Part shown: positions 27,570 to 32,575 of the stretch, one piece after another
Layout of the letters: every line of letters starts with the position of its first letter
How positions within the stretch are numbered: the stretch's first letter is position 1
Sequence record: SRR20825006_727
Strand: one strand, 5' to 3'
Length of the DNA stretch: 45,226 nucleotides
The notes under the pieces: generated by a model
The model's input: the letters and a program-made list of their open reading frames with translations, nothing else
Told to the model about the DNA's origin: nothing
Databases searched by the model: none
Position numbers and translations under genes: made by a program

Positions 27570-28067
27570 TTAAAAAATTAATGTGATGAGAAAATTTGAC
27601 GTAATCCATCCTCCGACAAAGAATGAAACTGTAGCTACAATTGAGCTTATAGCGAATTGAGAAACACCCATTATGCAATGTCCCGCTGTACATCCATTTG
27701 CATAGCGCGCACCGAATCCAACTAAAACGCCACCCAAGAAAAACTGTCCAGCGTTCTTAAATTCATATACGGTTGTTGAAATAAACTTCCATCCTTCGCT
27801 ACTCTCAGGACTAACAACTGCGGGTTTCCAAAAAGGAAAAAACCAAGAGACGAGGAAACCTGCTGCGATCAACCCAATACAAAAATGAAGCTGCCAACTG
27901 TCTTTAACGCGGTCATAGTTGAAATAAGGAACTTTTTTGAATGGTCCACTCAATAAGTAGCGATAAGAAGAGGAGATTCCAAACTGTTTTTCTCTCAAAA
28001 TCAATAAAAGCGGGACGATCAAACCGATAAGTGGCCCAGCAAAATACCAAGGAATTATAGGGTTCAT
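27570..28067 (-). CDS. YeeE/YedE-family sulfur-compound transporter half
   Basis: PWYFAGPLIG, FGISSS and GGVLVGFGARYANGCTAGHCIMG. Confidence 0.88.
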   Translation of the reverse strand: MNPIIPWYFAGPLIGLIVPLLLILREKQFGISSSYRYLLSGPFKKVPYFNYDRVKDSWQLHFCIGLIAAGFLVSWFFPFWKPAVVSPESSEGWKFISTTVYEFKNAGQFFLGGVLVGFGARYANGCTAGHCIMGVSQFAISSIVATVSFFVGGWITSNFLITLIF

Positions 28068-29314
28068 GACACACTTGTTTGAAGAAATGAGTAATCGCTT
28101 TCAACCAACGCGTTTGATGGGTCAACTCGGATAAAATCATCTGGTAAAAGTACAATTGACACTTCTGGACGATCATTGAAATCGATTTGCTTCAATTCAT
28201 TAAATCTCACCCAACCCGTGCGATAACTGTATGACTCACTGATAAATGTTCCATCCACTTTCTGGAAATCAAGAATCGATAAATTATCCAACTCTGGAGA
28301 ACCCAAATAAATACGCACAAGGACATCGTCAGTTAAAGTCAATTCCTGGTCTCCATCCGACTTTTTATACTCATACAAATAATCAAATTTTAGCGCCGAA
28401 ATATCCGATAAAACGGCACTCGCGGTTGGATAACTTCCAGCTCCTTTACCTAAAAACAGTTGCTTGTCGGCAAACAATCCTTCTATAATCACCGCGTTGA
28501 ATTCATTGTTCACATCAAACGCAAAATGTGTGGACTCCACAAAAAATGGAGCTACGAACGCCACCACTTTATCATCCAGTTTTACAGCCTTCGCGAGTAA
28601 CTTTATTCGATATCCTTTTTCCTGTGCAAAATCAATGGCATTTTGAGAAATCGTTCGTATTCCGCAATTAAAAATGGCATCAGGCTCCACTGCCAAGCCA
28701 AACGCATGCTTGAGTAAAATCGTTAACTTGAATTTTGCATCGAATCCGTCCACATCTAAGGTTGGATCTAATTCCGCAAACCCGAGTTCCTGAGCTTTTT
28801 GGAGTGCTTCATCGTAACTCACACCAAAATTGGACTGCGTGAGAATGTAATTGGTAGTTCCGTTTACAATTCCTTCTACAGACGTGAGTGAATCGTTGTT
28901 GTAATATTCCTCCAGATTTCTCAAAATTGGTATTGCTCCAGCAACTGCACCTTCGTACAACAATGAAGCTCCCGTTTTCTGAGCCACCTCAAGAAGTTCG
29001 GGTAAACGCTCTGCGATCAGTTTTTTGTTCGCCGAAACGACATCTTTCCCAAGTTCAAGCGCTCGTTTTACAATCGCAAAGGCTTCATTTGAATCATTGA
29101 TTAATTCAACAACCACGTTTATTTCCTCGTCATTCAAAATCTCATTTACATCAAAGGAAAAATGATCCAATGAAAGCGAGCGTTTTTTATTTTGATCCTT
29201 CACTACAATTCTTTTTATCGTAGCGTCGATTAATTTTGACTGATGCAATACTTCATAAAGTCCAGACCCTACGCAGCCAAATCCAATCAATCCTATTTTT
29301 AATTTTCTGTTCAT
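28064..29314 (-). CDS. hom: Homoserine dehydrogenase
   Basis: GLIGFGCVGSG Rossmann motif, VVSANK, GIVNGTTNYIL, AELDPTLDVDGFD and GKGAGSYPTASAV. Confidence 0.93.
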   Translation of the reverse strand: MNRKLKIGLIGFGCVGSGLYEVLHQSKLIDATIKRIVVKDQNKKRSLSLDHFSFDVNEILNDEEINVVVELINDSNEAFAIVKRALELGKDVVSANKKLIAERLPELLEVAQKTGASLLYEGAVAGAIPILRNLEEYYNNDSLTSVEGIVNGTTNYILTQSNFGVSYDEALQKAQELGFAELDPTLDVDGFDAKFKLTILLKHAFGLAVEPDAIFNCGIRTISQNAIDFAQEKGYRIKLLAKAVKLDDKVVAFVAPFFVESTHFAFDVNNEFNAVIIEGLFADKQLFLGKGAGSYPTASAVLSDISALKFDYLYEYKKSDGDQELTLTDDVLVRIYLGSPELDNLSILDFQKVDGTFISESYSYRTGWVRFNELKQIDFNDRPEVSIVLLPDDFIRVDPSNALVESDYSFLQTSVS

Positions 29315-29326
29315 CTTTTTAATTTA

Positions 29327-30382
29327 TTAAGCCACAGCCACTTTTTTGAACTGTGTTAATTTGTATCGTTCTACTTTTTCTGTCAGAAACTCGTCCAAAA
29401 TCATCTCCAGTTGGGCTGTTTCGATTAAGAATCCATCGTGTCCAAAATCCGACGTTATTTGAGCAAACCCAGCATCTGGAATCCATTCCGACAAGAATAT
29501 TTGTTCGTTCGGAGGGAAGAGTTGGTCAGAATCTATTGCGACAACAAGCGTGCGAGCCTCTACCAATCCAAGTGCTTCTTCCAACGACTTTCGATTCCGT
29601 CCTGCATGATGCGCATCCATTGCATTCAACAGTGTTACGTAAGAGTAAGCGTTAAATCGATTCGCTAATTTTTGCCCTTGGTATTTCTGATAACCGCTGG
29701 CGCTAAAATTGATCGTTTTTTCCTCACTTTGATCCGTTTGCGTCGCAACATAACCAGCATAAGAACGATAACTCAACATTGCCAGACTTCTCGCAGCTAC
29801 TAATCCTGCTTTTCCGCCATTAATGACATCATTTCCAAAAGTCACATCCGCCGCAATTGCCAGTCGTTGGCTCTCATTGAATGCAATTCCGTAGGCCGAA
29901 TGACGTGCGTTCGTTGCAATTAAGCACAGCTGATCTATTACTTTTGGTTGAGAAATAGCCCATTCCAATGCTTGTTGTCCACCCAATGATGCGCCAATCA
30001 GTAAAGAAATTCGGTCGATTCTGAGTCGTTTCCGAACCTCATCAAAAAGTTGCGCTTGATCTCGTGTGGTAACTAACGGGAATTTATCCAGCAAAGGACG
30101 TTTATTTTCCTCTGGACTCGTCGGTCCCGTTGTCCCATAGCACGATCCTAAGGCATTCACACAGATAATGAAATACTCGTTTGGATCAAACAATTTCGCG
30201 ACTCCAAATAATCCATTCCACCAGTCAAAAACATCGCTGTTTGCCGTGAGCGCATGACACACCCAAATCACGTTTGATTTTAGAGCATTTAATGTTCCAT
30301 AGGAAGAGAATGTTGCTTCAACGTTCGGGAGAATTTCTCCAGATTCCAACTCAAAGGATCCTATTTTCAAGGTATTTTTCAT
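29327..30382 (-). CDS. metX: Homoserine O-acetyltransferase
   Basis: CHALTAN, GSCYGTTGP, GASLGG nucleophile, DQLFP and GHDGFL triad. Confidence 0.92.
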   Translation of the reverse strand: MKNTLKIGSFELESGEILPNVEATFSSYGTLNALKSNVIWVCHALTANSDVFDWWNGLFGVAKLFDPNEYFIICVNALGSCYGTTGPTSPEENKRPLLDKFPLVTTRDQAQLFDEVRKRLRIDRISLLIGASLGGQQALEWAISQPKVIDQLCLIATNARHSAYGIAFNESQRLAIAADVTFGNDVINGGKAGLVAARSLAMLSYRSYAGYVATQTDQSEEKTINFSASGYQKYQGQKLANRFNAYSYVTLLNAMDAHHAGRNRKSLEEALGLVEARTLVVAIDSDQLFPPNEQIFLSEWIPDAGFAQITSDFGHDGFLIETAQLEMILDEFLTEKVERYKLTQFKKVAVA

Positions 30383-30396
30383 TGTTCTGAATTTTT

Positions 30397-31731
<1,335 letters not shown>

Positions 31732-31752
31732 TTAAATTGAAAAATAAAGGAG

Positions 31753-31796
31753 GAATACGCCAAAAGGCATCGGGCCCTGATGTCCGAGGCATATTC
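31753..31796 (-). terminator. Putative attenuator (3:4) hairpin between the leader ORF and metY
   Basis: Transcript reads GAAUAUGCC-UC-GGACAUC-AGGGCCC-GAUGCC-UUUU-GGCGUAUUC then CUCCUUUAUUUUU. The U-tract is offset by 4 nt, so an intrinsic terminator is uncertain. Confidence 0.55.
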
Positions 31797-31819
31797 AAGA
31801 ATACTGACTAATCAGAAAA

Positions 31820-31939
31820 TTAGCAGCACATACAGCAACAGCACATGGCTACTGTGTAGGAAGTAAAATAAGGGATACCAAAATTGTTCTGATTAAAATC
31901 AGAAACGTGTTGTGTGTAAGATGTTTTGTTTGCGTTCAT
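31820..31939 (-). CDS. Met/Cys-rich leader peptide, 39 aa: MNANKTSYTQHVSDFNQNNFGIPYFTSYTVAMCCCCMCC
   Basis: Read directly from the minus strand; ends ATG TGC TGT TGC TGT ATG TGC TGC TAA. Lies between the SAM riboswitch and metY and is below the ORF-track size cutoff. Confidence 0.8.
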   Translation of the reverse strand: MNANKTSYTQHVSDFNQNNFGIPYFTSYTVAMCCCCMCC

Positions 31940-31947
31940 CACAATTC

Positions 31948-32074
31948 ATTTATATTCTCCCACCATTGGGATCAGGAATTGGCACCGGTTTTCCAATACT
32001 AACGTGTTTCGTTAGCACTTAAAGTTGGTTGCCAGAGGGTCTCAGAGCCTGTCTCTAACCTCTTCTGTATAAAT
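31948..32074 (-). ncRNA. SAM-I (S-box) riboswitch aptamer
   Basis: P1 AUUUAUA/UAUAAAU; P2 GAGG..AGAG-ACAGG-CUCU..CCUC; conserved GGCAACC...GGUGCCAAUUCC; P3 extension AGUGCUAACG/CGUUAGUAUU; P4 UCCCA/UGGGA; pseudoknot CAGG/CCUG. Located upstream of the met operon. Confidence 0.9.
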
Positions 32075-32107
32075 CACAACACTGCTCGATTGCAGCTAAT
32101 GATGCCA

Positions 32108-32115
32108 CAAATATC
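32108..32115 (-). promoter_or_regulatory. Putative -7 promoter element of the met operon
   Basis: GATATTTG (one mismatch to TAnnTTTG) with TTG 21 nt upstream, about 33 nt before P1. Confidence 0.4.
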
Positions 32116-32170
32116 TTAAATTTGTTTTCAAGTACACAAGTATTTTTCATAAAAAAATTAAACTCAGCAA

Positions 32171-32575
32171 ATGAAAAAACGTCTTACGCCAATGGTACTG
32201 GCGATCACAGCGATTTTTATTTTTTTAGGTGTTTTCGTTTATCAACGTTATTTAGCTCCGATGATTGACAATAATCTGTCTACGGAATTGTCAATCGACT
32301 TAAATGCTCGAAAAAAAATCATGCTCAGCAAGGATGCAAACCGAGGAAAAGTGTACAGCATTGAATTAGAATTTTCAGGAAAAAGTGCGTCGAACTTGCA
32401 GCTAATTATTGGCGAATCGGAACACAAATTTAGTCAGGTAATCCAACTTAAAAAGGGAGAGATTGATTTCGATTATGTGAATGATTGGTATTCTGACAGT
32501 TGCTACATTGAAGTTACCTCCGATTCTCCATCTTCGGGTAAACTTGATATTTCCTATCGTTTTCTAACACTCTGA
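32171..32575 (+). CDS. Hypothetical protein with N-terminal membrane anchor
   Basis: 134-aa ORF, hydrophobic N-terminus and beta-rich domain (YVNDWYSDSC). Confidence 0.65.
   Translation: MKKRLTPMVLAITAIFIFLGVFVYQRYLAPMIDNNLSTELSIDLNARKKIMLSKDANRGKVYSIELEFSGKSASNLQLIIGESEHKFSQVIQLKKGEIDFDYVNDWYSDSCYIEVTSDSPSSGKLDISYRFLTL

Follow-up and report, generated by a model that had tools for sequence, protein, structure and literature searches.

What does a short open reading frame (ORF) ending in eight consecutive Met and Cys codons do in front of an operon for homocysteine and methionine synthesis? The question is raised by a stretch of DNA of 45,226 nucleotides (nt) from sequence record SRR20825006_727, the whole of which we call the window, where such a small ORF precedes metY on the minus strand. 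An earlier note on this DNA had inferred a ribosome sensor of both sulfur amino acids. The leader ORF with its Cys/Met run stands, but that picture overlooked an S-adenosylmethionine (SAM)-I riboswitch aptamer 8 nt upstream; with its start 8 nt after the aptamer, the ORF belongs to a riboswitch leader rather than forming an attenuator on its own. Our preferred reading, which we hold with moderate confidence, is that the ORF is a translated regulatory leader, rather than the gene of a stable protein, lying in the SAM-I expression platform of a metY-metX-hom-sulfur-transporter operon and joining SAM to the supply of Cys- and Met-tRNA. To judge from sequence comparison, one RNA leader probably reads both SAM and sulfur amino acid supply.

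Organization of the leader and operon

The leader runs from the SAM-I aptamer through 8 nt, the small ORF and a further 100 nt to metY, all on the minus strand. Its parts, and the genes that follow, are:

32075..31947, minus strand: SAM-I riboswitch aptamer (RF00162; cmscan 58.7 bits against a gathering score of 44.4, E 3.5e-11, full model 1-108)
31939..31820, minus strand: small ORF, 39 codons plus TAA
31846..31823, minus strand: Met/Cys run, codons 32-39 of the small ORF (ATG TGC TGT TGC TGT ATG TGC TGC), adjoining the stop codon
30397..31719, minus strand: metY-like O-acetylhomoserine sulfhydrylase, first gene of the operon (Pfam Cys_Met_Meta_PP, PF01053, 1.6e-131)
30382..29327, minus strand: alpha/beta hydrolase, metX-like (Pfam Abhydrolase_1; named metX-like from fold and context, there being no specific model)
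29314..28064, minus strand: homoserine dehydrogenase, Hom (Pfam Homoserine_dh and NAD_binding_3)
28067..27570, minus strand: Sulf_transp protein (Pfam Sulf_transp)

Conceptual translation confirms the 39-codon ORF ending in MCCCCMCC that the earlier note had described; the strand, which it left unstated, is the minus strand. The ORF begins with ATG at 31939..31937, ends with TAA at 31822..31820 and encodes the peptide MNANKTSYTQHVSDFNQNNFGIPYFTSYTVAMCCCCMCC, as read from the sequence, with neither Met nor Cys in codons 2-31. An in-frame GTG lies one codon 5' of the ATG, at 31942 on the same strand. The gap to metY had been given as 100 nt and, with the metY ATG at 31719, is exactly that. The Met/sulfur operon that had been placed downstream is also there: Pfam gives the PF01053 enzyme, Homoserine_dh and Sulf_transp, the metX-like gene being assigned by context, and the part of the operon that follows metY spans 27570..30382 (minus strand). 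Thus eight Met/Cys codons in a row precede an operon for homocysteine and methionine synthesis and sulfur transport, which is to say that they encode the amino acids of the pathway itself.

The aptamer is the single match in an Rfam scan of the whole window. It is 129 nt long and lies 227 nt upstream of metY and 8 nt before the small-ORF ATG, on the same strand as both. The 3' strand of its P1 helix, at about 31955..31947 (minus strand), occupies positions -16 to -8 relative to that ATG. NCBIfam returned zero matches for the four leader peptides submitted, that of the window included, and a word-sharing homologue search with the 40-residue GTG-start form of the peptide was empty, as expected for a peptide conserved solely in its low-complexity tail.

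Conservation across Bacteroidota

Relatives were taken as the 80 best metY matches among one-genome-per-species contigs, with 71-80% protein identity. All are Bacteroidota, and they include Crocinitomicaceae and other Flavobacteriales, Hymenobacter, Pontibacter, Rufibacter, Algoriphagus, Pedobacter, Mucilaginibacter, Saprospiraceae, Chitinophaga and others. Rfam places a SAM-I riboswitch upstream of metY in 74 of these 80 genome loci. The aptamer was not found in L011, L022, L028, L032, L057 and L068, the last two of which have almost no upstream DNA. The 74 relatives and the window together form a set of 75 leaders.

A qualifying ORF, defined by an ATG within -6 to +17 nt of the aptamer end and at least three Cys among the last ten residues, is present in 66 of the 75 leaders (25-59 codons, median 42), and 61 of the 75 have at least four Cys. 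The search of metY upstream regions that the earlier note had proposed therefore yields a run-bearing ORF in 66/75 SAM-riboswitch leaders of Bacteroidota. The position of the ORF is narrowly held: its ATG is at +8 from the aptamer end in 32/66 and at +7 to +11 in 58/66. So is the position of the run, the last Cys being the final codon in 40/66 and no more than two codons from the stop in 61/66. Outside the run, the peptide is unrelated between genera. In an alignment of six sequences from the window's clade, the block of the Cys run and a block containing GGGCCC are the conserved islands downstream of the aptamer. The layout spans genomes of Flavobacteriales, Cytophagales, Sphingobacteriales and Chitinophagales type.

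Six Algoriphagus loci (L025, L051, L052, L053, L069 and L071) keep the riboswitch, and five of them keep a Cys-less ORF at +10 (MHxGF...KLSAxFM), no ORF having been found after the aptamer in L053. The Algoriphagus spacer to metY is short, at 63-84 nt in four loci. These leaders may represent a derived form in which the ORF serves only to couple the riboswitch to the gene.

A second set consists of 80 metagenome loci, in which the aptamer was judged by a short core-motif proxy and Rfam was not run. An ORF with at least four Cys in the last ten residues was found in 37/80, four loci having too little upstream sequence. At a best identity of 79%, the metagenome loci are no closer to the window than are the genome loci. 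Two genome loci show further variation. In L017, metY is 1083 nt downstream of the riboswitch and its Cys-run ORF; other sequence fills about 900 nt of this distance, and this operon may start with an extra gene. In L064, a second SAM riboswitch (1061-1172) is found about 1.5 kb upstream of the one associated with metY.

Reading frame and start sites

A frame-blind search for (TGY)>=3 in the 75 leaders found a run in 58, and in 58/58 the run shares its frame with an open ORF that extends back to an ATG at -8 to +20 of the aptamer end; over that span, each of the two remaining frames is open in fewer leaders, 10/66 and 14/66. In 1500 mononucleotide shuffles of the 75 leaders, counting ATG ORFs of at least 20 codons, none reached four or more Cys in the last ten residues and seven reached three. 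The N-terminal parts of the peptides are unrelated and their lengths vary, so the frame has been kept through much change. Within the runs, TGT occurs 216 times and TGC 152 times, and both codons are used in 62/66 leaders, so that the mixture of TGC and TGT, which had been taken in the window as a sign of selection on the amino acid, holds for the relatives as well. Met is enriched in the run: its share is 10.8% among the last ten residues and 2.3% in the ORF body.

The start sites resemble those of genes. In the accessible text of a study of Flavobacterium johnsoniae, adenines at -3, -6, -12 and -13 are described as stimulating initiation, and Bacteroidota are described as starting translation without Shine-Dalgarno sequences (PMC6847099). 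Upstream of the small ORFs, adenine is found at -3 in 62%, at -6 in 77%, at -11/-12 in 70%/77% and at -14 in 74%. The metY starts of these loci have a closely similar pattern, with adenine in 68% at -3, 62% at -6 and 68/83/64% at -12 to -14. The second residue of the leader peptide is Lys in 36/66 and Glu in 12/66. Frame and start-site marks fit a regulatory leader that would be translated and in which only the terminal codons would be under selection.

The idea of a ribosome sensor for both sulfur amino acids agrees with the frame found in 58/58, with conservation confined to the run, with the start context and with the attenuators of aptamer-less relatives described below. The case for Met sensing is weaker than that for Cys sensing: Met is enriched in the run, but its codons, lying beside UGY, may be selected at the RNA level. 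A sensor role of the terminal Cys/Met codons would fit the comparative evidence well, and we regard the interpretation as a whole as partly supported.

The enzymes of the operon point in the same direction. The 440 residues of the window's MetY include 2 Met and no Cys, and the 416 of Hom include 2 Cys and 1 Met; over the first 430 codons of each of 66 metY genes there is one Cys codon in total. Avoidance of Cys and Met is expected of enzymes that are needed during sulfur amino acid shortage, and the low content in MetY and Hom, compared within Bacteroidota, looks like sulfur economy.

Relatives without a riboswitch

Among the metY leaders that lack the aptamer are these seven: L011, L022, L104 (Flavobacteriales), L028 (a Bacteroidales metagenome-assembled genome), L112, L150 and L123. 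The leader peptides of L112 and L150, which are metagenome contigs, are near-identical. These leaders carry one short Met/Cys-run ORF or two in tandem (for example MFKNMCHMMCCM... and ...KNMMCCMCCLPRMPEVVCCGTF), and each such unit is followed by a GC-rich hairpin and 5-9 U, the exception being the metY-proximal unit of L123. By eye and unscored, segments a few codons beyond the run (CCGGAGG, GCGGAAUGG) show complementarity to the terminator's 5' arm (CCCUCUGG, CCCUUCCGC) and, also by eye, to the stretch just before the terminator. We read these pairings as the classical 1:2 / 2:3 / 3:4 layout, in which a ribosome stalled on the run would favour the antiterminator. These leaders look like classical sulfur amino acid attenuators and suggest that the sensor module can act alone; they are also the main reason for proposing that a stall turns the operon ON.

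Specificity among SAM riboswitches

Ten genomes reached through the loci contain 26 SAM-I riboswitches by covariance model, ten of which are metY leaders already counted. Eight of the 16 others are metH-type (L081, L082, L085, L087, L176, L179, L182 and L186), a call based on a downstream gene that starts with a conserved homocysteine S-methyltransferase-domain N-terminus and confirmed by Pfam in both of the two sequences submitted. The small ORF is present in 0/8 of them. Their P1 ends in AGAUAAGYG, and a small hairpin comes next, then a GAUAAGC repeat; all but L081 have, after a short hairpin, the element YUUCUNGAUAAGC, in which the sequence of the P1 strand recurs. By its sequence, the metH-type is a different expression platform in the same genomes.

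The remaining riboswitches include further Cys-run ORFs. In L092, an ORF ending ...RICCCCCC follows the aptamer ahead of a second PF01053 pyridoxal phosphate (PLP) enzyme. One Hymenobacter genome (G003) has GTG-start Cys-run ORFs at +10 after three aptamers (L084, L091 and L094), in front of a TonB-receptor-like gene, an ATP-grasp gene and an amino-acid permease, which suggests a multi-locus regulon. No Cys-run ORF was found at the last four of the 16 non-metY riboswitches. The aptamers associated with the ORF end in an all-A/U P1 (AUAUAAAU). As the ORF is tied to genes of sulfur assimilation and uptake, and to an all-A/U P1, it is not a generic part of SAM riboswitches.

Predicted structures downstream of the aptamer

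The following structures are predicted in the window's leader, the last two from minimum free energy (MFE) folds:

31904..31878, minus strand: weak hairpin within the ORF, 7 base pairs (UUCUGAU/AUCAGAA), then CAAUUUUGG; -6.7 kcal/mol
31801..31829, minus strand: stop-spanning hairpin, in which a segment 9 nt further on pairs with the last two Cys codons plus the stop
31795..31754 (with tail, 31739..31795), minus strand: two-tier hairpin, outer stem AAUAUGCC/GGCGUAUU, inner stem GGaCAUC/GAUGCC

Next to the aptamer, the window shows no evident terminator/antiterminator pair. In-ORF hairpins with a U-rich tract after them are present at +57 to +66 in each of the six leaders of the window's clade; their energies range from -2.6 to -10.7 kcal/mol, and three are weaker than -4. 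Twelve Hymenobacter leaders have strong in-ORF hairpins with U-runs at +72 to +85, at -17 to -25 kcal/mol. The best terminator-like hairpin in the ORF averages -7.9 kcal/mol, against -5.2 for metY windows and -4.6 for shuffles. The window's in-ORF hairpin is a weakly supported candidate counterpart of the terminator-like hairpins in Hymenobacter. Pairing across the stop shows mild enrichment among 71 leaders, 15 of which are at p<=0.05.

The two-tier hairpin has an invariant GGGCCC (31777..31772) in its apical loop, and its 3' tail, CCUCCUUUAUUUUUC, is pyrimidine/U-rich. Twelve loci of the clade (the window, L001-L005 and L095-L100) have a hairpin with GGGCCC in its loop 58-79 nt upstream of metY. 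The inner stem covaries, its three pairs having compensatory changes in 6, 2 and 3 of 10 sequences. Conservation of the loop suggests that it has a protein or RNA partner; pairing of the loop with the aptamer or the Cys run was considered and dropped, no convincing complementarity being seen by eye. From the folds, the hairpin might act as a terminator or an antiterminator. The partner segment of the run or stop overlaps the 5' arm of the outer stem in several members of the clade (judged partly by eye), and in our reading this overlap would make a switch in those members; in the window, the segment and the outer stem are 4 nt apart and do not overlap. A whole-leader consensus was attempted with RNAalifold on 15 Hymenobacter leaders and gave only 13 pairs, the alignment being too divergent.

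Immediately upstream of the metY ATG, 30 nt of A/U-rich sequence stay unpaired in every predicted fold. The leaders are C-rich and G-poor, in the ORF body in 62/66 and in the spacer in 65/66, with median C/G ratios of 1.58 and 1.69 compared with 0.97 in metY, a composition compatible with Rho loading sites.

Upstream of the aptamer, a promoter search found no sigma-70-type site, and the minus strand from the aptamer to the divergent gene has a near match, GATATTTG (32115..32108), but no exact TANNTTTG. An exact Bacteroidota -7 promoter motif, TAAATTTG, lies on the plus strand at 32117..32124, 47 nt before a divergent ORF of 134 residues (32171..32575, plus strand) that has no Pfam match.

Proposed mechanism and alternatives

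From the observed anatomy and conservation, we infer translation of the ORF, its gating by P1, the direction of the response (stall = ON) and termination that is either intrinsic or Rho-dependent. By its geometry, the adenine-rich 3' strand of P1, at -16 to -8, would be part of the initiation region of the ORF, and a P1 closed by SAM should then hide the ribosome landing site. When SAM is low, P1 would be open and the ORF would be translated. By analogy, a shortage of charged Cys-tRNA, and perhaps Met-tRNA, would slow the ribosome on the terminal run. A ribosome held at the 3' end of the ORF would alter downstream folding or the access of Rho, and the polymerase would reach metY; if the ORF were not translated, or were translated fast and the ribosome released, transcription would stop within the leader. 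Operon output would be highest with low SAM and limiting sulfur amino acids. As a tentative extension, the P1 3' strand may itself be the adenine-rich landing pad, in which case the riboswitch would gate the poly-Cys/Met sensor and the leader would join two conditions, low SAM and scarce sulfur amino acids, in a logical AND. The ribosome-run sulfur regulon that would result would comprise, across the genomes sampled, metY and the second PLP enzyme and, in one Hymenobacter genome, the permease, the TonB receptor and the ATP-grasp gene.

Several observations weigh against a sensor that works through transcription attenuation. A clear run is missing in 9/75 leaders, namely the six Algoriphagus loci and L023, L031 and L033, where the ORF ends are weaker but Cys/Met-rich, and the Algoriphagus ORFs show that the ORF can exist without Cys sensing. 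The 75 leaders are related by descent and are not independent trials, so that the counts overstate independence. AUG beside UGY makes self-complementary RNA, and conservation of the run may therefore be partly at the RNA level. As for the structures, the window's in-ORF hairpin is weak (-6.7 kcal/mol), its stop-spanning hairpin is no better than in shuffles (z -0.03, p 0.43), and the tail after the GGGCCC hairpin is, by eye and unscored, not a canonical U-run in every clade member. When ribosome footprints were masked at the run or the stop of the window's leader, the two-tier hairpin formed in every state; MFE is blind to kinetic competition, and these folds neither support nor exclude attenuation. 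The same masking in the aptamer-less attenuators left the terminator in place in all states, which is expected because the terminators are very stable, the kinetics again being untouched by MFE. Finally, contigs of four runs are identical over the stretch, with zero variants, and so are uninformative on natural variation, and the sole RNA run among 21 sequencing runs shares 0.03 of the stretch's words and so does not contain it.

The main alternative keeps the sensor and removes the gate: two independent checkpoints in series, a riboswitch with its own terminator inside the ORF and then a separate Cys/Met attenuator, with SAM not gating the ORF. The strong terminator-like hairpins of the 12 Hymenobacter leaders would serve as the first checkpoint, those of the window's clade being mostly weak, and the aptamer-less relatives show that the ORF module can work alone. 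Independent modules, however, need no tight spacing, and the ATG is held 7-11 nt from the aptamer in 58/66. The P1 3' strand also supplies the -11 to -14 adenines of the ORF start, P1 is all-A/U (AUAUAAAU) in leaders with the ORF and different in the metH-type, and the in-ORF hairpin of the window is weak; we consider two serial checkpoints unlikely, if worth keeping in view. A second alternative removes the sensor and keeps the translation. Here the ORF would be translated only to couple the riboswitch to transcription, through an anti-Rho or antiterminator ribosome, and the run would be an RNA hairpin or pause element. This draws on the self-complementarity of (UGY)n and UGC-AUG, on folds that pair the run with itself or with ACAGYAGC-like segments nearby, on the C-rich, G-poor leader and on mycobacterial precedents, as far as their accessible text describes them (PMC11260477, PMC12810186). 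Yet a hairpin could be made from any codons, and the frame is that of Cys in 58/58, never of Leu or Ala; TGT and TGC are mixed in 62/66, the run accompanies genes of sulfur assimilation and uptake and not metH, the aptamer-less attenuators carry the same run, and MetY is Cys-free. We give a purely coupling role a small chance.

Two further explanations concern the product and its existence. The conserved C-terminal poly-Cys tail and the good start context are what one would expect of a functional Cys-rich micropeptide (metal-binding, persulfide-carrying or lipidated) co-expressed with the sulfur operon. Such a peptide is improbable given that the sequence is unconserved outside the tail, that its length ranges over 25-59 codons, and that there is neither a family match nor a word-sharing homologue; in addition, the ORF has a fixed place between the aptamer and the first biosynthetic gene, the aptamer-less copies stand in tandem with a terminator after each, and no modification or export genes are found among the Pfam-annotated genes of the window. 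That the ORF is never translated, the run being a protein- or RNA-binding platform sequence, agrees with the fact that the signs of translation are those of sequence. Against this, the frame is open from ATG to run in 58/58, compared with 10/66 and 14/66 for the other frames, the stop follows the last Cys by 0-2 codons in 61/66, and the start has Kozak-like adenines and a Lys or Glu second codon, so that we find an RNA-only element very hard to credit. Our preferred reading remains a translated leader ORF that would read sulfur amino acid supply behind a SAM riboswitch.

Relation to known systems and significance

Firmicutes S-box (SAM-I) leaders and attenuators of the trp/his type are the classical systems for comparison. 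Like the former, the window has a regular RF00162 aptamer; unlike them, it has no evident aptamer-adjacent terminator/antiterminator pair. Like the latter, the aptamer-less relatives have an ORF with regulatory codons followed by a terminator. To our knowledge, the textbook set contains no Met or Cys leader-peptide attenuator.

Polycysteine short ORFs are described in mycobacteria, where they are leaderless and pausing at Cys codons is proposed or shown to be the signal (the "Cys ribulon"; Canestrari et al., bioRxiv 10.1101/834739). As far as the accessible text of that preprint allows comparison, both systems place a poly-Cys short ORF before sulfur or cysteine operons and both have several loci per genome, here in Hymenobacter. 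The mycobacterial ORFs begin leaderless mRNAs, whereas that of the window follows a 129-nt aptamer on the same transcript strand. The mycobacterial mechanism unmasks a Shine-Dalgarno sequence, whereas Bacteroidota do without such sequences and the region upstream of metY is unpaired. The present case thus departs from the mycobacterial class in two features that define it. Also unlike the Cys ribulon as described there, the window's run contains Met codons and the controlled genes make homocysteine and methionine.

Candidate Cys leader peptides with proposed Rho attenuation have been reported in Actinobacteria (Seliverstov et al. 2005, PMC1262725), and the uORFC-8-2 motif of Rhodobacterales cysS, with two Cys codons, has a proposed intrinsic terminator (PMC8632094). 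These resemble our leaders in that a short leader ORF has its run of Cys codons close to the stop; in the accessible portions of the two reports they occur without a riboswitch, in other phyla and upstream of other targets (cys operon, cbs, cysS). Ligand-sensing RNA and a short ORF are found in one leader in the Mycobacterium tuberculosis B12 riboswitches with upstream ORFs (uORFs; PMC11260477), in the M. tuberculosis Mbox with a uORF and Rho (PMC12810186) and in the Salmonella mgtA leader, where the Pro codons of the proline-rich mgtL add a second input (PMC6460261), and in these leaders translation of the ORF decides downstream expression. As in riboswitch-controlled uORFs, the start of the window's ORF is within reach of the switching helix (8 nt; +7 to +11 in 58/66). 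Compared with what the accessible parts of these papers describe, the present leaders differ in that the ligand is SAM, that the sensor codons, Cys and Met, correspond to products of the same pathway branch, that the start site is seemingly built from the P1 strand and lacks a Shine-Dalgarno sequence, and that the arrangement is conserved across several orders of one phylum.

In the literature searched, mostly without subscription journals and supplements, we found no description of a SAM riboswitch combined with a poly-Cys/Met ORF. An earlier one may exist, for example in the supplement of a Flavobacterium psychrophilum transcriptome paper whose accessible text mentions leader-peptide attenuation (PMC9723704). 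Each half has precedent, in Cys leader ORFs and in riboswitches with uORFs, and within the literature searched it is their fusion that is new.

If our reading is true, these leaders would provide a testable model of riboswitch control in a phylum without Shine-Dalgarno sequences, and a case of two signals, a cofactor and charged tRNA, being integrated in one RNA leader. It would also add a set of unannotated small ORFs to the annotation of Bacteroidota. Should the P1 strand indeed be the landing pad of the ribosome, this would explain how many Bacteroidota riboswitches without obvious expression platforms work.

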